Shown here: in pieces, positions 315 through 10,781 of the stretch | Layout of the letters: the number at the start of each line of letters is the position of its first letter | Position numbering within the stretch: the stretch's first letter is position 1 | IMG/VR virus record: IMGVR_UViG_2778261567_000015 | Location: 1 to 10,781 of that record | Direction: 5' to 3' (one strand) | Origin: a virus | Taxonomy: Duplodnaviria; Heunggongvirae; Uroviricota; Caudoviricetes | Length of the DNA: 10,781 bases | Position numbers and translations under genes: made by a program | Notes under the pieces: generated by a model | The model's input: only the letters and a program-made list of their open reading frames with translations | Told to the model about the DNA's origin: nothing | Database searches by the model: none

Positions 315-530
315 TCGGGTCCTTCCTGGAATTATGGCCCGTTACGGGGCGGCGACCTCGCGGTTTTTATCTGTTTATGAAAATTTTTCTGGAAAAAGCA
401 TGTCGGCACTTCTCGAACATAACTATTTGTTTTTAAATAGATACACAATAAAAAGAAACGACACGGTAATCATCTGAAATGGCGATTTATGACGCTTTCA
501 TGTCGTTTCTCAGTTTTGTTCAATAATTGC
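315..530 (+). other. lambda-type cos site A (cosQ-like, cosN, long cosB-like region)
   Basis: 12-mer GGGCGGCGACCT at 347-358, preceded by CGGGTCCTTCC...GTTACG and followed by CGCGGTTTTTATCTGTTTATGAAAATTTTTCTGG, which closely matches my recollection of the lambda cohesive end and left-end sequence. Further lambda-like blocks follow (CATAACTATTTGTTTTTAAATAGATAC; inverted AGAAACGACA 454-463 / TGTCGTTTCT 501-510, R-site-like). Confidence 0.7.
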
Positions 531-537
531 GCTGCGG

Positions 538-1080
538 TTACTCGCCTTTCTTCTGTAGCAACTTTTCCGGTACGTCTCCGGTAGTTTCCATCAGGTAATC
601 AGCCAGTATCTTCGGGAGGTTGTCGGCAACTGTGGCACTGGCATTACAGGCTTTAGCCACTTCCTTTTTAAGTCCATCCAGCATGGCGGGGGTCATCTGT
701 GGGAATCCCCTTTGCATAGTAAGCGGGAGGCTGTCCATGATTGAAGAAATCTGGTTCGCCAGCTTTGAAAGCGCGTACAGGCAAAAACCTGTATCAATCA
801 CGTCGCCGCGTTCGCGCTCGTTTTTAAGCTCCTGCGCCTCCGCCTGGGCCGTCAGTAATCGGATTCTTACGCGTAAAAGTTCATCATCGTCGATATCGCC
901 TTTGTCGTTTGTAACCTGGTCAATTGCATTGCTTACCCGATTGTCTATCACGCTGGCAACATCGTAAAAAGCCTCGCGGCCTTTACGTTCAACGGGAGTC
1001 ACTCCCCACTTGTCGAACGCTGTCGCACTTACACGGCAGCTTTGCGCCATAGTTTTTTTGTTCATCAGGTGCGATTTCAT
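538..1080 (-). CDS. phage small terminase subunit, lambda Nu1 family (TerS-like)
   Basis: Translation aligns by eye to lambda Nu1 along most of its length (e.g. LLTAQAEAQELKNERERGDVIDTGFCLYALSKLANQISSIMDSLPLTMQRGFP versus Nu1 RLTRAQADAQELKNARDSAEVVETAFCTFVLSRIAGEIASILDGLPLSVQRRFP). Start is ambiguous: GTG 1092, ATG 1080 (GTGGGGA SD upstream) or ATG 1065 (MNKKT, matching Nu1 MEVNKKQ). Confidence 0.8.
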   Translation of the reverse strand: MKSHLMNKKTMAQSCRVSATAFDKWGVTPVERKGREAFYDVASVIDNRVSNAIDQVTNDKGDIDDDELLRVRIRLLTAQAEAQELKNERERGDVIDTGFCLYALSKLANQISSIMDSLPLTMQRGFPQMTPAMLDGLKKEVAKACNASATVADNLPKILADYLMETTGDVPEKLLQKKGE

Positions 1081-1092
1081 CAATATCCCCAC

Positions 1093-1257
1093 TTAGTTAA
1101 GGTTTCAGGTTGGTGTATTGGTTTTATATTTCCCTTTTTATTCATAAAGATAGAGCAAACAACAAAACCACCACCACCACCCTGAAAAAGCTCATAAATA
1201 GCGAAAAACCGCGAGGTCGCCGCCCCGTAACGGGTCCATATGCCGGAAAGGACCCGT
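1093..1257 (-). other. lambda-type cos site B (cosQ-like and cosN conserved, cosB diverged), oriented toward the TerS-like gene
   Basis: Reverse complement of 1201-1257 is a near-identical copy of 315-371 (ACGGGTCCTTTCCGG...GTTACGGGGCGGCGACCTCGCGGTTTTTCGC). cosN 12-mer is the complement of 1214-1225. Lambda-like sequence continues about 25 bp (CGCTATTTATGA), then becomes unique, including an (ACC)5 run at 1167-1182. Confidence 0.7.
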
Positions 1258-1280
1258 AAAAAAAGCCGGATTTCTCCGGC
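1258..1280 (-). terminator. intrinsic terminator (minus strand)
   Basis: Hairpin GCCGGA-TTTC-TCCGGC (1265-1280) followed on the minus strand by a U-run (A-run 1258-1264 on plus). Lies downstream of the decoration-protein gene. Confidence 0.5.
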
Positions 1281-1401
1281 CTGTCTCAGATAGTTTTCAG
1301 TATGCGATCGATGTCGCCGTCATCGCCTGGGTTTCTGCTTTAAATTTACTCGCCAGCGGTAGCGCCATGATGCTTTCATTCGTTGCCATCGTTCCCCCTG
1401 C

Positions 1402-1737
1402 TTATCGCGCCAGCGGCTGAACGGATACGCCAGAACCCGCAAAGGCGGCGCATTTTTTCGCGTCAGTGTCGACGCTCTCAGGCCAGTTTACGGCGGCGAT
1501 ATTAAATATCCCCGTCTTGTAACACTGTGCTGATTTCTGCTTTGACGTGTCCACAGGGTACGAGGTCAGATAAACAGCCTTGCCAGATTCCTGACCATCC
1601 CACGGCTTAAACTCGCCATTGTCCGCCAGCATCAGCGGGGTAAATTCCTGAATGACGCCAGCATCAGCGGCAAAATGTACCAGCGTCGTGGATACCTGCT
1701 GACTGCCTGCAAATAACTCAATGTATGGAGTGTTCAT
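1402..1737 (-). CDS. head decoration protein, lambda gpD-like (111 aa)
   Basis: Same length as gpD and shared blocks TPLMLAD, WDG, and GIFNIAAVNWPES...KKCAAFAGSGVSV versus gpD GTFRYEDVLWPEA...KKRTAFAGTAISIV. GGGGGA SD before the ATG at 1737. Confidence 0.75.
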   Translation of the reverse strand: MNTPYIELFAGSQQVSTTLVHFAADAGVIQEFTPLMLADNGEFKPWDGQESGKAVYLTSYPVDTSKQKSAQCYKTGIFNIAAVNWPESVDTDAKKCAAFAGSGVSVQPLAR

Positions 1738-1748
1738 AGAATCCCCCG

Positions 1749-2804
1749 TTAACCAATTTTGACGGTAACAAATTTGCGAATATCTGCTGGTACCGGCTGC
1801 GGTGCGCTGTGCGTCTGAACGTACTCAATCGCCGGATCGCCGTCTTCAATCCAGTTTTTCGGGTAGTACATGTTTTGCGTTGCACCAGTTCTTACCGCTT
1901 CCTGATCCATAATCGCGCCATAGGCCACCAGCCCTTTATTGTTGGTGTTGCCCAGGACCAGCAAATCAGGCTCAAGGAAATATTTTTCGGTACCGTCGCT
2001 GTCAGTGTATTTGCCGGAATAGACGATAAGGGCCAGATCTCCCAGATAGCCTTTAAAGCTCACCACTTCGCCCAGGTTTTTACAGGCCAGTTCGGCGGCG
2101 GATTCTGAACCACGGGAAAGATCGTACAGCTCACGGAATTTTTTAAAGCTGCGTAACGTGCGCCATACCTCAGCGCCCATAATCATGACGTTGGCGGGGC
2201 AACCTGCCTGATCTGCGTATAGTTCGATGTCATAGATTGGATCGTAAATATCTTTATCATGCTCGGACCATTTTTTACCCTTGGCCTGCTCTATGATGCA
2301 GTTTTCCGGTATTTTCCAGTCGATTTCATAGCGTTCTATGCCTTCGCCCTCAATGATGTTTTTTCCGGTCGTGACCGCATTTACAGCCAGCCATTCAACA
2401 CGCGCTTTAATGGCGTTTATCTGGCGGCGCATGTTGCCAGTAATCAGGCGCATACGGCGGTAGGTAGGGTCGTTAAGCAGTGCCGGATCTTCTCCAGCCA
2501 TGCGCATTATCGTTTTTAATGGATCGATTTCGTGCTTTGGCTTCATGTAGCCTGGTTTAATCGTGCTGGTTTCGTACCCTTTATCGCGCTGAACCTGGCT
2601 ACCCACCACAGGCGAACAAAACGCCGATATAGTGACTTCTTCAATGTCCAGGTTATCAAGCATGATGTTCTGGGTGCTGAATGTCGCCACGTTCGGGAAA
2701 AACAGTGTGGTAAACAGCGGACTGAATTTATATTCCGCAATATCCCCGCGATTCAGGTACGTGAAAAGCTGATTAGTTGTAAGTGCTGTTGCTTTTACTG
2801 TCAT
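1749..2804 (-). CDS. major capsid protein, lambda gpE family (351 aa)
   Basis: Multiple long blocks match lambda gpE from memory: KFSPLFTTLFF/KFDPLFLRLFF, KPGYMKPKHEIDP/TPGYVKPKHEVNP, DPTYRRMRLITGNMR/DPAYRRRRIIMQNMR, WSEHDKDIYDP/WSKRDKSTYDP, FKGYLGDLALIVYSGKY/YKGMYGDVAIVVYSGQY, YPKNWIEDGDPA/YPKNWVTTGDPA. GGGGGTG SD; start overlaps the upstream stop (TAATG). Confidence 0.9.
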   Translation of the reverse strand: MTVKATALTTNQLFTYLNRGDIAEYKFSPLFTTLFFPNVATFSTQNIMLDNLDIEEVTISAFCSPVVGSQVQRDKGYETSTIKPGYMKPKHEIDPLKTIMRMAGEDPALLNDPTYRRMRLITGNMRRQINAIKARVEWLAVNAVTTGKNIIEGEGIERYEIDWKIPENCIIEQAKGKKWSEHDKDIYDPIYDIELYADQAGCPANVMIMGAEVWRTLRSFKKFRELYDLSRGSESAAELACKNLGEVVSFKGYLGDLALIVYSGKYTDSDGTEKYFLEPDLLVLGNTNNKGLVAYGAIMDQEAVRTGATQNMYYPKNWIEDGDPAIEYVQTHSAPQPVPADIRKFVTVKIG

Positions 2805-3010
2805 TATTCACCCCCGTGAACCTGATTCATACCCAGCGCCGCGCGTAAATAGGCGCGTACCTGCCAGCCTGTTGACGGCTCAACCATCGCCAGCGGATCA
2901 AGTCCTGCCGCAATGCCTGCTTTTACGTTCTGCTGGTGGCGTTCCTTGAGCGCCTTCACGATGTCGGGGCTTATGTACACCGAAACACCGCCTTTTTTCT
3001 CTTCAGCCAT
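2804..3010 (-). CDS. hypothetical protein (68 aa), first gene of the morphogenesis operon
   Basis: ATG at 3008-3010 with AGAGGA SD; stop overlaps the capsid ATG (translational coupling). No family recognised. Confidence 0.5.
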   Translation of the reverse strand: MAEEKKGGVSVYISPDIVKALKERHQQNVKAGIAAGLDPLAMVEPSTGWQVRAYLRAALGMNQVHGGE

Positions 3011-3045
3011 AGTAAGAAATTCCTCTTTGACTTAAAAAATCATAA

Positions 3046-3094
3046 CTGGATGTTCATCCAGCTCTGATTATAATCAGGATTGCATTTTGTGCAA
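3046..3094 (-). promoter_or_regulatory. candidate sigma70 promoter of the morphogenesis operon with a perfect palindrome at the start of the leader
   Basis: Minus strand reads TTGCAC (complement of 3089-3094), 16 bp spacer, TATAAT (complement of 3067-3072). Perfect 7-2-7 palindrome CTGGATG-TT-CATCCAG at 3046-3061 sits between promoter and SD. Confidence 0.4.
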
Positions 3095-3174
3095 TGATGT
3101 TGAGTTGTGTTGCAAATTATGAAATGATTATCCCGATCATGTGTGCCAGCGCACCAAAAAACCTCATATGCAAA

Positions 3175-3241
3175 AGCCCGATAAGCCCCCTCTGACCTTA
3201 TCGGGCTTTTTTTGGGTACAAAAAAGCCGGATTTCTCCGGC
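3175..3241. terminator. tandem intrinsic terminators separating replication and morphogenesis modules
   Basis: Hairpin GCCCGATAAG...CTTATCGGGC (3175-3205) followed by a T-run (3206-3212). Second hairpin GCCGGA-TTTC-TCCGGC (3226-3241) with a flanking A-run, acting on the minus strand just after the stop at 3249. Confidence 0.55.
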
Positions 3242-3248
3242 TGTGTGA

Positions 3249-3521
3249 TTAGCTGTCTGGGTAATTACGCCATATTTCATCGCTTACACCATCTATACCC
3301 ATTTCAGCATAAGTGCGATCGACTGCCTTTCTCAGGTCTCCGAAGTTATCCGGCGGCTCCGGTGGCTTCTGTGCCTTCCTGGAACATTCCAGCCGTCGCA
3401 TCGTAACCTGATGCCGTTCCTTGTCTGTCTCCACCAGCTGCATGACTTCACCCCATCGCGCCGCCGCCCTCCGGTAAAATCCTTTCGCCTCGAGTTCCTC
3501 CGCTATGCGGTCATGTACCAT
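3249..3521 (-). CDS. PerC-like small transcriptional regulator (about 90 aa)
   Basis: ATG at 3519-3521 directly after the SSB stop with GGGGTGAGG SD. Motif MVHDRIAEELEAKGFYRRAAARW resembles the PerC family as I recall it. The longer track ORF (to 3641) overlaps SSB and is not favoured. Confidence 0.55.
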   Translation of the reverse strand: MVHDRIAEELEAKGFYRRAAARWGEVMQLVETDKERHQVTMRRLECSRKAQKPPEPPDNFGDLRKAVDRTYAEMGIDGVSDEIWRNYPDS

Positions 3522-3531
3522 CCTCACCCCC

Positions 3532-3942
3532 TCAGAACGGAATACCATCACCGTAAGGGTCATCGCCTCCCGCTGGTGGCTGATTACCCTGTGTGCCTGT
3601 GGTTTTGCGTCTGTTCCCGCCAGGACGTGCCGCGCGGGCACTGATTACGCTGTCTGCGATAACCTGCCAGCCCTGCCGCGTTTCGCCGTTCTGGCCTGTC
3701 CACTGGCTTACCTGCATCGTGCCGGATACGCTGGCAACATCGCCTTTTTGATGTTTAGCCAGGAAATCGGCCTGTTTGCCAAATGCGATGACCGATAACC
3801 ATAACGTCGCCTGTCCGTCCTGTGCCTGGCTGCATGGCAAAGATACCGCCATACGCGCCAGCGTCATCGGTGTGCCCTTGCTGGTCTGTTTTACCTGCGG
3901 GTCGTCCACCAGCCGCCCGTAAGCGGCTATCTGTGCCGTCAT
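3532..3942 (-). CDS. ssb: single-stranded DNA-binding protein (SSB)
   Basis: OB-fold-like N-terminal pattern (YGRLVDDPQV...WLSVIAFGKQADFLAKHQKGDVASVSGTMQVSQWTGQNGE), Gly/Pro/Gln-rich linker and acidic C-terminal tail DDPYGDGIPF, comparable to the DDDIPF tail of bacterial SSB. Confidence 0.8.
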   Translation of the reverse strand: MTAQIAAYGRLVDDPQVKQTSKGTPMTLARMAVSLPCSQAQDGQATLWLSVIAFGKQADFLAKHQKGDVASVSGTMQVSQWTGQNGETRQGWQVIADSVISARAARPGGNRRKTTGTQGNQPPAGGDDPYGDGIPF

Positions 3943-4395: not shown

Positions 4396-5790
4396 CAGTG
4401 GTCCTACATCATCACCATCAATGTAAATCACGGCGTCTTTTTCCAGTTTGGCTAACCATCGCCGCATATTTTTCACGTCATACCCAAGCCGTTTCATGTC
4501 ATCACGTAACAGCGGGATCGTGCACTTGTCGCCGTTCTGTGTACGTGAACGGATGCACCCCCATAGCGCGGTATGGTTTTCCGTCTTGTTGCCTGCCTCC
4601 TCGATGCGCTCCAGTTCAACGGGAGGGCGCGGCTTATCCACCACCACCAGCGACGTGATTAACTCCCCGTCAGCGTCGGTAAAAAGCTCCACCACCCGCA
4701 AATCATAGGCAGCCTCTTTGAGTTCCTCCGCGTCCTTCATTTTGGTGCATGAGATAACCAGCGCTTCGCTTCCTGCGTCCTCCCTGCGTATCCGGTATTC
4801 AGCATCCAGCGAAGCACGAAATGCACTGGAACCGCGCGCGCCTTTCGTCTCATCCTTGCCGGAATGGTGAACCACCAGCACCGTGGCCCCTGTGCGCCGT
4901 TTCAGTTCGTCACAACCACGGATAAACGCCCCCATATCACGGGAATCATTTTCATCATTGCCACCAAAGCACCGCGCCAGCGTATCCAGAATAATCATGC
5001 GTACAGGTTTACCCGTTTCCCGCTCCACCTGACGGGCAGCGATAACCAGTTCATCAACATCAAGCGGGACAGCCGGAAAGACCGGACGGTTTACCAGATA
5101 CAGATTTTTCACCTGCTCCCCGTGTACAACCTCCCACGCTCTCACGCGACGCGGTACACCAATACCGCCTTCACCAACCACATAGAGAACAGCGCCATGT
5201 GCAACCCTGCGGCCTCCCCACTGGCGGCCCGTGGAAACGTGACACGCCCACGAACCCGCAAGGAATGATTTATAGGAACCGCTTGCCCCGTATATGCTGC
5301 ATAGCGACGATGCCGGAATAATCCCCTTTACCACGTAATCTAATTGCGTGTCGTATCCGGCAGATCCAACGCTCATCGGTAGCGTGGTTTTTCGCTGGTG
5401 GCTCAGGCTTTCCCCGCGTTCCCATGTCTCCCTAAGCCGTGGAAGCTGGTCGCTCCATTCCTCCAGCAATTCGAAATTTTCAGAAAACAGGCGCGCTTCC
5501 TGGACTCCTGCGATTGCCAGTTTCGTGGCGATGGTTAACAACTGCACTTCGTCAATATTTCCGGCACGTATCACTTTCGCCCTGAACCGACCTTTATCAA
5601 CAATCTGCAAGTTATCCAGTTCGCTTAACTGATAACGCCCCAGGTAAACGGGAGGGACTGGATCGCCTGCTTTTTTGGCCTGTGCAATGATGTAGTGCTC
5701 TGCAAATGAGTGAGCATTATCACCCGCAAAAATAACCGCTTCGGTGTGTTTATCTTTCGGTAACAGTTTTACATTCGGTGCCAGTTTCAT
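4393..5790 (-). CDS. replication ATPase / helicase, RepA-DnaB-type RecA fold (465 aa)
   Basis: Walker A-like GASGSYKS, Walker B-like RMIILDT, VLVVHHSGK motif typical of RepA-like helicases; C-terminal basic domain. Start overlaps the upstream ORF stop (ATGA). Confidence 0.8.
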   Translation of the reverse strand: MKLAPNVKLLPKDKHTEAVIFAGDNAHSFAEHYIIAQAKKAGDPVPPVYLGRYQLSELDNLQIVDKGRFRAKVIRAGNIDEVQLLTIATKLAIAGVQEARLFSENFELLEEWSDQLPRLRETWERGESLSHQRKTTLPMSVGSAGYDTQLDYVVKGIIPASSLCSIYGASGSYKSFLAGSWACHVSTGRQWGGRRVAHGAVLYVVGEGGIGVPRRVRAWEVVHGEQVKNLYLVNRPVFPAVPLDVDELVIAARQVERETGKPVRMIILDTLARCFGGNDENDSRDMGAFIRGCDELKRRTGATVLVVHHSGKDETKGARGSSAFRASLDAEYRIRREDAGSEALVISCTKMKDAEELKEAAYDLRVVELFTDADGELITSLVVVDKPRPPVELERIEEAGNKTENHTALWGCIRSRTQNGDKCTIPLLRDDMKRLGYDVKNMRRWLAKLEKDAVIYIDGDDVGPL

Positions 5791-6086
5791 TTTTTACCCC
5801 TGAATCCGTTAATCATGGTTTTCAGCTTCTGGATGTTTGCCCGTGCTCTGGCGTTGCTGGTGGGCACGTTATGCGGCGCGGTCTGTACCAGAGAAAAATC
5901 ACGCCGGAACTGATAAACAGGCATCACGCAATCATATTCGTAACCTTCACGGCGGTAAGTTACGCACCGTCCCGCCACGCCCTTAATCATTACCGTGCCG
6001 CCGTACTGGTCGCGGTAAATATCACCGCGCGTAAATTTAGGGTGAGTGTTGCCACTGGCAGTTAAGCCAGAATATTTAAGTTTCAT
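5787..6086 (-). CDS. hypothetical protein (99 aa), coupled to the replication ATPase
   Basis: Complete ORF; 4-nt overlap with the downstream ATPase start. No family recognised. Confidence 0.5.
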   Translation of the reverse strand: MKLKYSGLTASGNTHPKFTRGDIYRDQYGGTVMIKGVAGRCVTYRREGYEYDCVMPVYQFRRDFSLVQTAPHNVPTSNARARANIQKLKTMINGFRGKK

Positions 6087-7149: not shown

Positions 7150-7432
7150 AAAGGCTCCTGTAGTGAAATTAAGGAGTCTCGCTACTACGCTGCTAAACGG
7201 GGTGGCGAGACGTAACAGGGTTAGCAGACTGGCACTACAGGAACCAGCGAGCGCAAAGGCTCCCCCGTTACGCCCCGCCATAATGCGGGTATGGGTAGGT
7301 TTACGGACACAAAAAAACCGCATATCGGAATGTAAGCGGCTGTCCGCTGTAGTATTCAGGCTGCTAAACCCGGTCGCCATGTGGGCGATGGGTGAAGCAT
7401 ACAGCCCCGTGATAATTTTTTGCAAGCGGTTT
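7150..7432 (-). other. structured spacer between the Icd-like paralogs; candidate riboregulatory leader
   Basis: Open in both strands with no convincing protein. Contains two direct GCTGCTAAAC copies (7189-7198, 7360-7369) and the complementary GGGTTAGCAGAC (7218-7229); inverted CCTGTAGTG/CACTACAGG (7158-7166 / 7233-7241) overlapping the SD of the 7146 gene; weak hairpin plus 7-nt U-run on the minus strand at 7311-7339. Confidence 0.3.
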
Positions 7433-7630: not shown

Positions 7631-7700
7631 AACGGCTCCTAGTTTACGTTGTTGGTTAGAAGCCCCGTATGTGTTCCAGCACTGCGGGGTTTCGTCTTTT
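7585..7700. repeat. copy 1 of a ~115-bp duplicated unit (5' leader plus first codons of the Icd-like gene)
   Basis: Shares with 8330-8447 the blocks CGTTTGTGTGTGTA, CCATAA, TGGTTAGAAGCCC and a GC hairpin followed by a T-run (7663-7700), in the same order and spacing. Confidence 0.6.
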
Positions 7701-7719
7701 CTGTACCTTGCATCAACAA

Positions 7720-7802
7720 GGTGTAAGACACAATGTAAAATAACGGTGTCTTACACGTCAACCCTTCAAAATATTTTTTTTTCGTGTATATTGTCTTACA
7801 CC
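7720..7802. promoter_or_regulatory. divergent promoter pair with inverted-repeat operator
   Basis: Inverted repeat GGTGTAAGACAC (7720-7731) / GGTGTCTTACAC (7745-7756) and a third half-site TGTCTTACACC (7792-7802). Minus-strand promoter TTGACG (complement of 7756-7761) and TACATT (complement of 7732-7737). Plus-strand promoter TTCAAA (7765-7770), 16 bp, TATATT (7787-7792). Confidence 0.45.
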
Positions 7803-7822
7803 AAAAACATGAGGGGTTAAAC

Positions 7823-8002
7823 ATGGCAACGGGTCCAAAGAATGCAAAATCACAATCTGTAACTGCACGTATTGCCCATGAAATTATTGAAGGCATGGAG
7901 AACGTGAAAGAAGAAGGTGAAAGCACGGGGCAGTTTATAAACGCAGCCATGCGCGGCGAAATCAAACGCCGCCAGCGTCGCAAGGCCAAAGAATCAGAAT
8001 AA
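7823..8002 (+). CDS. ribbon-helix-helix (CopG/Arc/MetJ-type) DNA-binding protein (59 aa)
   Basis: ATG at 7823 with GAGGGG SD. Predicted beta-strand QSVTARI followed by two helices (AHEIIEGMENVKEEG, STGQFINAAMRGEI) and a basic tail. The track's GTG start at 7784 lies inside the promoter and is not favoured. Confidence 0.55.
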   Translation: MATGPKNAKSQSVTARIAHEIIEGMENVKEEGESTGQFINAAMRGEIKRRQRRKAKESE

Positions 8003-8059
8003 TCACTATCAGCGCCGTGGTGTGAGGTACTACGGCGCATTGCTTTACAGGGCAGTACC

Positions 8060-8287
8060 ATGACCAACAACACACTATCACCAATACAAGACACGCAAAC
8101 GCAAGATGATGAAATCATCCGGCAAAGGCAGTCAGAAGCCTGCGCCAGACTTGAGGAAGAACTAACCAGAACAAAAATACCACCACCAGCGCCGCGCTTA
8201 GTGCCACCAGAAAAATTTGCCCTTGAAGATTTTGTCGATAAATACCCACGGCGGCTTAAATCCGGCAAAAACCGACCGCCAGGATGA
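8060..8287 (+). CDS. hypothetical protein (75 aa), acidic N-terminus, Pro-rich centre, basic C-terminus
   Basis: ORF downstream of the RHH gene on the same strand. Weak SD (AGGG 12 nt upstream). Followed by hairpin GAAACGGA-TTAT-TCCGTTTC (8308-8327). No family recognised. Confidence 0.4.
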   Translation: MTNNTLSPIQDTQTQDDEIIRQRQSEACARLEEELTRTKIPPPAPRLVPPEKFALEDFVDKYPRRLKSGKNRPPG

Positions 8288-8329
8288 GTGCACAAAACCG
8301 AACTCTGAAACGGATTATTCCGTTTCCGG

Positions 8330-8447
8330 GGCGTTTGTGTGTGTATAAAGAGTAAGCTATGCTCTTTTATAGCCATAATCTTTACCTCAATTAATGGTTT
8401 GGTTAGAAGCCCGTTGGTGTTCATAGCGCCAGCGGGCTTTGCTTTTT
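8330..8447. repeat. copy 2 of the duplicated leader unit, carrying a remnant Icd-like start
   Basis: Same block order as 7585-7700. Minus-strand ATG at 8374-8376 with SD GAGGTA encodes MAIKEHSLLFIHTQT (compare MVAVNHIPHLVHTQTA) and then loses the Icd-like sequence. GC hairpin 8409-8437 plus T-run 8438-8447. Confidence 0.55.
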
Positions 8448-8506
8448 GTGTTGATTGTGTGTAATGTGTCACTACACATAAATACATTACATGAGGTGTA
8501 ATTAAC

Positions 8507-8686
8507 GTGTCAACACACAAAAACGAAAGGCGTGGTAATCCTCCGTTCCAGTTCCGTTTAGATCCTGACTTACGGGAAAAGATGGAAAAGGCACAACAAC
8601 ATGACGGCGATGATTCTCTTGCTGCCTGGATAAAGCGAATAATCCGCAAAGAATTACAGCAACGCGGCATAGAACCCAAAGGGTAA
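8507..8686 (+). CDS. Arc/Mnt-type ribbon-helix-helix repressor (59 aa, GTG start)
   Basis: GTG at 8507 with GAGGTG SD 8 nt upstream; stop TAA at 8684-8686. PPFQFRLDPDLREKMEKAQQ...SLAAWIKRIIRKEL resembles P22 Arc (PQFNLRWPREVLDLVRKVAEE) and Mnt (PHFNFRMPMEVREKLKFRAE). Absent from the ORF track because it is under 60 aa. Confidence 0.55.
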   Translation: MSTHKNERRGNPPFQFRLDPDLREKMEKAQQHDGDDSLAAWIKRIIRKELQQRGIEPKG

Positions 8687-8836
8687 TTACATTGCCCACC
8701 AGCCTGATAGCGGCTATCATTCCCGTGCTTATGTTTGGGATCACATACACATAAGGCGCAGCAGGTTAATTGTTCACAAGGGCGTTCCGGCAACGGGGCG
8801 CTTTTTGTTATGTTCATCGTGTTATGCCTCACACCA

Positions 8837-9043
8837 TTACGCAGCCGTTCCGCGTGCTTCCTGCTCACGTTCTTTCATCCATGCGATTACGTCTTCCTCA
8901 TACCATCCGCGACGGCGTAAACCAACGCGAAAACCCTGCGGAAATTCTCCGGCGTTGATCATGCTTTGAAGCGTGCTGTCTGCCTTGATGTAGATAAGTT
9001 TTTTTACTTCCTGGCGAAAGATGACTTTTTTGATTGCTTCCAT
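8837..9043 (-). CDS. alpA: AlpA-family phage transcriptional regulator (68 aa)
   Basis: ADSTLQSMINAGEFPQGFRVGLRRRGWYEEDVIAWMKERE fits the AlpA/Vis MerR-like HTH pattern (...GxFPKPxKLGxRxxxWxxxEVxxW). Position next to the integrase is typical. Confidence 0.75.
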   Translation of the reverse strand: MEAIKKVIFRQEVKKLIYIKADSTLQSMINAGEFPQGFRVGLRRRGWYEEDVIAWMKEREQEARGTAA

Positions 9044-9198: not shown

Positions 9199-9210
9199 CT
9201 TTGAGGATTG

Positions 9211-9462
9211 TTACCGCCATTTTTTTGGCCTGCCTCCGGTCTTCATGGTTGCCGGACGAACTACCCTGTCGATACTTTCAGCCATATTCCTGGATGCCCC
9301 ACGGGATACCAGGAAATCTACTACCTGTTTTTTTGATGGGGCCGTCGTTCTGTCCTCCGGATCGTAGGTTGACCAAAATTCATGCTGAACCATCAGGGCC
9401 AGTTGCAGCCCGTCGCAATTGCATCTGAAATTTTTTTGCATCTTAACGGTTTCATGTTTCAC
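9211..9462 (-). CDS. hypothetical protein (up to 83 aa), doubtful
   Basis: ORF between int and alpA ending just before a terminator, but GTG start with weak SD and no recognisable family. Confidence 0.3.
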   Translation of the reverse strand: MKHETVKMQKNFRCNCDGLQLALMVQHEFWSTYDPEDRTTAPSKKQVVDFLVSRGASRNMAESIDRVVRPATMKTGGRPKKWR

Positions 9463-9539
9463 GGCCTTGTCGTTAAATTTGATGCAATTATACGACGGTT
9501 TTACATGGTTTTCGTAGTTTTTACTGGTTTTCTGTACAG

Positions 9540-10781
9540 CTAAACGGCTCGGATACCCCTTTTACCACTGGCGAGGGTTACGCCCGTCGCCGCAGCCTCG
9601 ACAAATTCGCCCCACCAGCGCATAAGCACCACGCGTTTTTCTATGTAGTTGCTCCGGTTGTATGCCCGTCTCACTTCGTTAGTGTCGACGTGGGCAAGTG
9701 CGGCCTCGATTACGTCCGGCTCGAATCCTTCCTCGTTCGCTGCTGTACTGAATATGGCGCGTAATCCATGAGACACCAGCACGCCAGCGAACCCCATGCG
9801 TCGTAATGCTGCGTTTGCTGTCTGGCTGTTCATTGGCTGCCGTGGGTCTTTCAGACTCGGGAAAACATAATCGCGGTGGTGGCTGATTGGTTTCATGGCC
9901 TCCAGCACCGCCATAGCCTGACCGGAAAGTGGGATAACGTGATCCCTGCGCATCTTCATGCGTCCGGCGGGTATCGTCCAGCGTTGCGCGTCCAGGTCGA
10001 TTTCATCCTACCGCGTTGATGACGCTTCGGCGGGACGGGTTACGGTCAGTAACTGCCATTCAATCAGTAATCTGGTCTGCCGTTCTGTTGCCGATACTGA
10101 TAAAGCCTGCATAAGCTCCGGCAACTGTTCGGGGCGGATTGTTGGCATATGTTTTTTTACAGGGGAGGGGAACGCCTTACGCACATTCATAGCCGGATTG
10201 GCATCAATCAGCCCACTGTTGGCGGCGTAATCCATTACCTCATTAACGCGCTGTAAAACCCGTTTGAGTGTTTCCAGGTTGCCGCGCTCCTTGATGGGGG
10301 TAAGCACCTCAACGAACCTGCGAGCGGTCAGGGTGTCTATTGGGGTGTTGCCGATGAACGGGAATACATATTTATCCAGCGATCGCCAGATGTCTTTAAT
10401 CGTGTTGGGGGCCAGATTCTGGCTGATTTTCACCTGGTACCATGCCGCCGCCACATTTTCGAACGTGTTCCCTTGTCTTCGGGCCTCTGCCTCTCGTTTT
10501 TTCTTCTCATGGCCCTGCGGGTCAGTTCCGGCACTGATTAACGCTCTGTACTCGCTACGGCGTTTTCTGGCATCAGCCAGGGAAACATCATCAAGCGATC
10601 CAAAACTCAGCAATATTCTTTTTTTGTCCGATGGCCGGTAGTAGGAAAATCGCCAGAGTTTTGATCCGGACGGTTTGACCAGGAGAAAAAGCCCTCCGCC
10701 GTCCTGTAGGGTGTATTCCTTTTCCGCTGGTCTGGCTGCTTTGATCTGCACCGTGGTTAATGGGGGTGTTTTTCTCGCCAT
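9540..10781 (-). pseudogene. int: P4-type tyrosine integrase interrupted by a single in-frame TAG
   Basis: N-terminal ORF 10011-10781 (GGGLFLLVKPSGSKLWRFSYY...) and C-terminal ORF 9540-9959 (HGLRAIF, RRAYNRSNY) are in the same frame, separated only by TAG (complement of 10008-10010). Read-through gives ...SSTR*DEIDLDAQRWTIPAGRMK..., where related integrases usually have Trp, consistent with TGG to TAG. Start codon is at the window edge. Confidence 0.75.

Follow-up and report, generated by a model that had tools for sequence, protein, structure and literature searches.

The inverted repeat at the predicted start site of the capsid-operon promoter in the 10,781-nt stretch of DNA analysed here (the window) is best explained, with moderate confidence, as a predicted operator for the host SOS repressor LexA. 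The first-pass annotation had taken it for the operator of an island- or helper-encoded regulator. The operator part of that proposal stands, the repeat being an operator-type site that overlaps the predicted start and is conserved, whereas the ligand named there (PerC, AlpA or a helper protein) gives way to LexA as the likelier one.

The satellite island and its capsid operon

Judged by its gene content the window is an EcCICFT073-type Gram-negative phage-inducible chromosomal island (PICI) of E. coli: it has int, alpA and a replication module of the primase/helicase kind together with cos sites and Rpp, and it lacks lysis and tail genes. All relevant genes lie on the minus strand. The layout is as follows.

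10781..9540, minus strand: integrase
9043..8837, minus strand: AlpA-like gene
next after the AlpA-like gene in minus-strand order: Icd-like ORFs and a C4 antisense RNA
6086..5787, minus strand: DUF4222 protein, 99 aa
5790..4393, minus strand: AAA_25 RepA-type helicase
3942..3532, minus strand: SSB
3249..3521, minus strand: PerC-family gene (PF06069), 90 aa, last of the early/replication module
2804..3010, minus strand: 68-aa gene (phrog_3255), first of the operon, its stop overlapping the capsid gene start
1749..2804, minus strand: major capsid protein, lambda gpE type, c1499 homologue (PF03864, E=2e-49)
1402..1737, minus strand: head decoration protein, lambda gpD type, c1500 homologue (PF02924, E=5e-18)
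1263..1282, minus strand: terminator closing the capsid operon, upstream of cosN and the Nu1-like/Rpp gene
347-358 and 1214-1225: two perfect cosN sites (lambda cosN)
538-1092, minus strand: Nu1-like/Rpp (TerS-like) gene

Gene order and homologues agree with EcCICFT073 (RgdR/DUF4222, primase/helicase, SSB, PerC, 68-aa gene, c1499, c1500, Rpp), which also has two cosN sites and the same promoter and box; the agreement in layout, c1499 capsid homologue included, was confirmed against the EcCICFT073 sequence itself. For that island a layout with c1499 as capsid and c1500 as decoration protein, plus Rpp and two cos sites, is published (PMC6092414, PMC6739421; Fillol-Salom et al. 2018, 2019). Unlike EcCICFT073, the window copy looks defective, with a W258* change in int and an internal deletion in the connector-like gene. 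RgdR is a 99-aa DUF4222 protein in published work, which rules out the 68-aa protein and the Nu1-like protein as candidates for it. Of 5,426 complete E. coli genomes, 908 carry the segment from PerC to the capsid gene, and a search for the capsid protein in a species-representative genome collection yielded no confirmed relatives. E. coli JNEC-KY174 shows 100% identity to the window over 9200-9700 and has a different late module.

The predicted capsid operon consists of four genes, namely the 68-aa gene, the gpE-type capsid gene, the gpD-type decoration gene and the connector-like gene. Between PerC and the first of them we located the following elements.

3225..3242, minus strand: intrinsic terminator of PerC and the early module, stem AGCCGGA/TCCGGCT then TTTTTT (terminator scan)
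3172..3210, minus strand: second hairpin terminator, perfect 14-nt arms (3172-3185/3197-3210) and an 11-nt loop (inverted-repeat search)
3109..3125, minus strand: distal operator-like repeat ATTTCATAATTTGCAAC, a degenerate copy 30 bp upstream of the proximal one (direct-repeat and pattern search)
3079..3095, minus strand: proximal inverted repeat ATTGCA-N5-TGCAAT, exact match, overlapping the -35 hexamer
3089..3094, minus strand: -35 hexamer TTGCAC, 3/6 matches to TTGACA
3067..3072, minus strand: -10 hexamer TATAAT, 6/6 matches
3044..3063, no strand assigned: predicted LexA (SOS) box AACTGGATGTTCATCCAGCT, core CTG-N10-CAG at 3046-3061, about +1 to +16 of the predicted transcript
3020..3043, minus strand: U-rich leader of the first gene with its ribosome-binding site (AGAGGAA, 3026..3020), read from the sequence

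The promoter had been called near-consensus. Its two hexamers are indeed there, with TTGCAC (3094..3089) and TATAAT (3072..3067) separated by a 16-nt spacer on the minus strand, but the -35 hexamer agrees with the consensus at only half of its positions and a consensus promoter scan made no call at TTGCAC-16-TATAAT. Among homologues the TTGC of the -35 hexamer is invariant, and TATAAT occurs in all box-bearing promoter variants except L077 (TGTAAT). The -10 hexamer is itself surrounded by a 12-14-bp palindrome, (C)TGATTATAATCA(G) at 3064-3077, of which TGATTATAATCA is also conserved.

The idea that this promoter gates capsid and TerS expression together fits the capsid genes, which lie downstream of it, better than TerS: the TerS-like gene is situated beyond the terminator at 1282..1263 and the cosN site at 1214-1225. 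Because terminator and cos site intervene, its gating is doubtful, and the TerS-like (Nu1/Rpp) gene probably lies outside the capsid transcription unit. Rpp interference occurs on infection without SOS, which fits rpp as a separate unit.

The inverted repeat as a candidate LexA box

On the minus strand the repeat CTGGATGAACATCCAG (3061..3046) begins 5 nt past the conserved TATAAT of a promoter that is, like its start site, predicted, and it ends 35 nt before the ATG of the 68-aa ORF. Earlier described as a perfect 16-bp palindrome at the start of the leader, it is an inverted repeat of the form 7+2+7 (CTGGATG-AA-CATCCAG, 3046-3061), in which 7-nt arms flank a non-symmetric AA/TT centre. The window contains 7 inverted repeats with 7-nt arms, compared to 3.1 +/- 2.1 in shuffled sequences; arm length by itself is thus unremarkable, and the significance of the repeat comes from its position, its conservation and its match to LexA boxes.

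The E. coli LexA consensus is TACTG(TA)5CAGTA, with CTG-N10-CAG invariant (PMC11228462), and the invariant trinucleotides are both present in CTGGATGTTCATCCAG at 3046-3061, within a 16-bp dyad. For scoring we used a matrix of 26 known LexA boxes; all 11 that lie in the 253 kb of K-12 sequence examined agreed with it exactly, and the other 15 were entered as given. With this matrix the window 20-mer reaches 20.0-20.7 bits (rank 15 of 26 among the known boxes), or 19.5 bits when ruvAB and cho are left out of the matrix; the same box in EcCICFT073 scores 21.6 bits. None of 2x10^7 random 20-mers reached 20 bits (P < 5e-8 per position), and no unannotated K-12 position reached 13 bits in the 253 kb scanned. 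The heterology index (Berg-von Hippel, 26-box set) is 6.7 for the window box, 6.7 for ruvAB and 6.2 for cho, within a range of 0.9-9.1 for known boxes; our computed indices correlate with published values at r=0.90. A second LexA-like box adjoins int, at 9522-9541.

The ruvAB box CGCTGGATATCTATCCAGCA, read from K-12 at 49 nt before the start codon, shares the arms CTGGAT/ATCCAG with the window box, and just the central 4 nt differ. The cho (ydjQ) box CACTGGATAGATAACCAGCA, read from K-12 at 13 nt before the start codon, is close to the window arms. All three have the 16-bp CTG-N10-CAG form, carry G and C at positions 4 and 13, respectively, and are located within 50 nt of a start codon. In contrast to the window box, which is predicted and stands before capsid genes in a mobile satellite island, ruvAB and cho are established SOS repair genes. 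Both are LexA-dependent (ruvA 1.9-fold, cho 5.1-fold; ruvAB induction about 2-fold; PMC11228462). As ruvAB, the closest box, is induced just about 2-fold, the size of an SOS effect at the window box may be modest. Against the LexA reading, the centre GATGAACATC is AT-poorer than in strong boxes, and palindromic symmetry alone would equally fit another dimeric regulator.

For comparison we assembled homologous promoters from 80 IMG/VR loci, E. coli genomes, divergent relatives reached via the 68-aa protein and two capsid-based scans. CTG-N10-CAG is present in 52 of 62 distinct promoters from E. coli, Salmonella and Pluralibacter (51 in register, 1 displaced). Within the box-bearing variants CTG and CAG do not vary at all, and changes occur at core positions 7-11 and 13. 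Over the 51 in-register variants, mean column entropy is 0.09 in the box, 0.61 in the preceding 5 nt (after the -10 hexamer), 0.20 in the 12 nt past the box and 0.27 for the whole non-coding region. The Salmonella box CTGGATAAATATCCAG has intact arms and an altered centre, and the Pluralibacter box CTGGATGTTTGTCCAG was moved 12 nt downstream by an insertion. Nine of the 62 promoters (L096, L104 and L210 lineages) are box-less and keep the rest of the promoter, with TAAAAT in place of TATAAT and the U-rich leader retained; LexA control would therefore be inessential to the module.

These data also bear on the simplest alternative, a functionless chance palindrome conserved through close kinship of the islands. 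Repeats with arms of this length are common, most capsid-gene homologues are 91-97% identical and the box is absent in some lineages, all as such an origin would have it. Yet the box shows about a third of the variability of the non-coding DNA around it while its immediate flanks vary freely, it is kept in Salmonella and Pluralibacter at about 60-70% capsid-gene identity and despite the 12-nt displacement, and a LexA score of this height is rare at any one position. We consider a chance origin extremely unlikely.

The repeat might instead work as RNA, either as a 5' stem-loop that stabilises the mRNA or, jointly with the U-run downstream, as a terminator or attenuator in the leader, subject to override by a helper antiterminator. 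Its hairpin has a folding energy of -9.0 kcal/mol (z=-2.9), the terminator scan flags AGCTGGATGAACATCCAGTT followed by ATGATTTTTT as terminator-like, and in Pluralibacter the hairpin is directly followed by UUUUUU, with an A-to-G change there that preserves a G-U pair. The natural variant CTGGATGAACATACAG (the ATACAG variant), which occurs on three different promoter backgrounds, speaks against this reading: it takes the LexA score up to 22.8 bits while the hairpin drops to -3.5 kcal/mol (z=-0.4). A change that betters the LexA match and ruins the hairpin points to a protein-binding DNA site rather than an RNA element. Besides, no more than 3 GC pairs make up part of the stem and the E. coli U-run begins 4 nt past it, so that the GC-rich stem, immediate U-tract and conservation of a terminator or attenuator are lacking. 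The U-run also persists in lineages that have no hairpin, and is therefore a feature of the leader rather than a terminator tail. For a 5'-terminal protective stem-loop the Pluralibacter hairpin is unfit, lying about 12 nt farther from the 5' end. A search of the region in Rfam gave no RNA family match. Taking both sides into account, a role as RNA is very unlikely.

A lambdoid pR' promoter offers a parallel, having a strong promoter-like element closely trailed by a hairpin and U-run and an inverted repeat between -35 and -10. Q-binding elements sit between -35 and -10 in lambdoid late promoters. In contrast to pR', natural variants do without the hairpin here and some lineages have none, and comparing the promoter region with phage genomes, as for a borrowed helper late promoter, revealed no similarity. 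Because of these variants and lineages, Q-antitermination and attenuation were rejected as the main reading.

PerC, the module boundary and the upstream repeats

Two parts of the first-pass annotation were borne out upstream of the promoter. The early operon does end with a PerC-like gene (3521..3249, minus strand), which matches PF06069 over residues 1-89 of 90 (E=6e-45), and PerC is followed by tandem terminators, two hairpins with T-runs at 3242..3225 and 3172-3210. The second one is retained in islands that have no PerC (e.g. L003, L094, L095), and by this distribution it is a part that moves together with the capsid module. Megablast matches break at window positions ~3212-3220, between both terminators, and many genomes share the capsid side alone or the PerC side alone. 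As seen in these alignments, there is a recombination breakpoint at ~3212-3220 that separates PerC from the promoter and box. The tandem terminators look like a by-product of modular recombination, each module having its own terminator.

If the promoter depended on PerC, the gene and the target site should occur together, and they do not. Counting the 80 loci with sufficient upstream sequence, we found PerC upstream in 51, and in the other 29 SSB is directly upstream and the same promoter and box are kept. Conversely, JNEC-KY174 combines this early module, PerC included, with an unrelated late module behind it (a ClpP-protease/capsid fusion), upstream of which neither a LexA-like site nor a TTGCA repeat is present. 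Because of these PerC-less loci, the intervening breakpoint and the JNEC-KY174 arrangement, PerC is probably a neighbour that is functionally untied to the capsid promoter. The adjacent gene is clearly PerC-family, like the PerC/Pch activators of the LEE1 promoter, but unlike for these at LEE1, no connection of the window PerC with the capsid promoter was found. PICI-encoded PerC homologues reportedly either have no effect on LEE1 or repress it (PMC11773190).

More broadly, the repeat could be an operator through which some island- or helper-encoded regulator (a PerC-like protein, AlpA, a helper repressor or activator) gates the late genes. Its palindromic form, its overlap with +1 and its conservation are compatible with this; among the island's products are several small putative regulators (PerC, AlpA, a YlcI/YnfO-like protein and the 68-aa protein with faint ribbon-helix-helix, or RHH, matches), and AlpA is known to activate EcCICFT073 early genes. 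However, the early modules differ among islands (int, alpA and primase types) and the promoter and box stay constant; PerC in particular is missing from more than a third of the box-keeping loci counted above and also stands before an unrelated, box-less late module. Known helpers are lambda, phi80 and a CFT073 prophage. These presumably differ in their regulators, and one conserved site is unlikely to suit them all. The high-scoring LexA match, moreover, already accounts for the sequence. We therefore regard an island or helper regulator acting at the repeat as unlikely. Since the capsid module occurs alongside diverse early modules, the best explanation for its conserved cis elements lies in factors that are constantly available, whether host- or module-encoded.

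The two ATTGCA-N5-TGCAAT repeats keep their arms, with variable centres, in E. coli, Salmonella, Pluralibacter, L096 and L104, box-less lineages included; the distal copy persists in every lineage, and L104 has both copies in full. Elsewhere in five islands, near alpA or at other sites, no consistent copies of the motif were found. A reading of the repeats as cos sites was rejected: TGCAA/TTGCA shows no enrichment beside the two perfect cosN sites (347-358 and 1214-1225). Being more deeply conserved than the LexA box, the twin repeats suggest a second regulator. An AF2 monomer model of the 68-aa protein (pLDDT 73) has an extended N-terminus and two helices, and a fold search with this model gave no matches. 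In its family, sub-threshold Pfam matches were obtained to BrnA_antitoxin for 3 of 13 members (E=0.017) and to RHH_1 for 2 of 13 (E=0.15).

A promoter with two inputs is a tentative further possibility, to which we give clearly less than even weight. It would combine a LexA box at +1, gained by E. coli, Salmonella and Pluralibacter lineages, with older cross-genus twin operators at about -28 and about -59 for a dimeric regulator, possibly the 68-aa protein as an RHH-like autorepressor. The second LexA-like box at 9522-9541 would carry SOS sensing to the regulatory end of the island, and SOS would be a direct input into Gram-negative PICI biology that needs no helper.

Proposed regulation and comparison with other satellites

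That the capsid module recombines with different early modules favours an always-available host factor such as LexA. In undamaged cells, a LexA dimer on CTG-N10-CAG (about +1 to +16) would block initiation or promoter escape. DNA damage would activate RecA and lead to self-cleavage of LexA, and the capsid operon would be derepressed; since DNA damage would likewise induce lambdoid helper prophages, derepression would coincide with the lytic programme of helper and island. Repression would probably be partial, given the likeness of the operator to ruvAB and cho, boxes of weak to moderate strength. A second dimeric factor would probably occupy the twin repeats (ATTGCA-N5-TGCAAT) that cover the -35 hexamer and DNA upstream of it.

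Two published observations weigh against the LexA reading: induction of alpA in EcCICFT073 is reportedly helper-dependent and SOS-independent (PMC6092414), and deletion of c1499 or c1500 was reported to be without phenotype. Our literature searches turned up no report of LexA controlling an E. coli PICI or of SOS inducing CP-933C; in the literature searched, LexA appears beside EcCICFT073 in reference lists only, and regulation of the capsid operon is not described.

The nearest precedent comes from Staphylococcus aureus, where operon I of the SaPIs, a packaging/interference module, is given as LexA-controlled, with the experimental demonstration attributed to Ubeda et al. 2007 (cited in PMC5052747). 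The likeness is that a satellite morphogenesis/packaging operon is under the host SOS repressor, which is a prediction in our case, and that LexA control is separate from the helper-dependent switch for excision and replication. The two differ in gene content, which is unrelated, and in the TerS-like gene, which here seemingly lies outside the controlled operon. The Gram-positive LexA box is a different motif from that of E. coli. LexA control is thus already known in staphylococcal satellites; here an SOS box is predicted on the capsid operon of a Gram-negative satellite.

Gram-negative PICIs are described as being switched on by helper-induced AlpA and as SOS-insensitive at that step. If LexA indeed acts at the capsid promoter, E. 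coli satellites would sense host DNA damage directly, in a convergent parallel to SaPI operon I, and SOS-inducing antibiotics could alter island gene expression even without a helper phage. As the EcCICFT073 experimental system carries the same box, the prediction is directly testable there. The LexA reading would also guard against taking the adjacent PerC gene for a late-gene regulator. Should LexA not bind, the conserved repeat and the twin upstream operators still mark a regulatory region, so far uncharacterised, that about 900 of 5,426 complete E. coli genomes carry.

A second LexA-like box beside the integrase gene

Scanning with the position matrix derived from 26 LexA boxes, we found a second LexA-like box, TACTGGTTTTCTGTACAGCT, at window positions 9522-9541 (16.8 bits; P ~9e-7 per position), immediately past the stop codon of int. 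A TATAAT hexamer lies 31 nt downstream and is followed by an ORF of 76-83 aa. The box shows no differences among the related island loci L003, L246 and L247; its flanks in L247 are 85% identical, and divergence begins right past the -10 hexamer.

One nonsense change, W258* (TGG to TAG, window 10008-10010), interrupts the integrase itself and is the sole amino-acid difference from an intact homologue in E. coli JNEC-KY174. Because of this change, the window's copy of the island would probably be incapable of excision.

Four TGCAA/TTGCA pentamers are clustered at window 9403-9487, where the 83-aa ORF adjoining the second LexA-like box begins, three of the four being spaced 16-17 nt apart. This pentamer also makes up the arms of the repeats at the capsid promoter (ATTGCA-N5-TGCAAT), and the cluster and these repeats may be connected.

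Cos sites and the connector-like gene

Two perfect copies of the lambda cosN sequence GGGCGGCGACCT were identified by sequence match:

347-358, plus strand, cosN
1214-1225, minus strand, cosN

The copies bracket the Nu1-like/Rpp gene in inverted orientation and are counterparts of the two cos sites described for the experimental model island EcCICFT073. Compared with the latter, the connector-like gene (window ~1290-1390), which has the decoration gene on one side and the cos site on the other, has lost ~313 nt by deletion, and its remnant is short and out of frame.

Immunity RNA region and small ORFs

The island also contains the following features:

7198-7285, minus strand, C4 antisense RNA (RF01695; 72 bits, E=7e-13)
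7353-7402, minus strand, accompanying a1/b1 target-like segment, scoring under the gathering score
5787-6086, minus strand, 99-aa DUF4222 ORF with RGD at residues 20-22
7784-8002, plus strand, ORF in the slot of an annotated YlcI/YnfO family protein in related islands
8060-8287, plus strand, 75-aa ORF within the 7639-8868 region

The C4 region, which adjoins Icd-like ORFs, is a P1/P4-style immunity RNA module. The DUF4222 ORF is the counterpart of RgdR (ECs1581/c1493), which has been published as an O-island 51 regulator of LEE and motility. The translation of a 409-aa minus-strand ORF at 7639-8868 is of low complexity and implausible, and this ORF is probably not a gene; the two plus-strand ORFs listed above occupy the region instead.

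Exchange of early and late modules

The island at the L246 locus (NZ_AP045170.1, 1877500-1893500) shares int, the early module and PerC with the window but has a different late module, with a ClpP-like protease/major capsid fusion. This shows that islands swap early and late modules among themselves.
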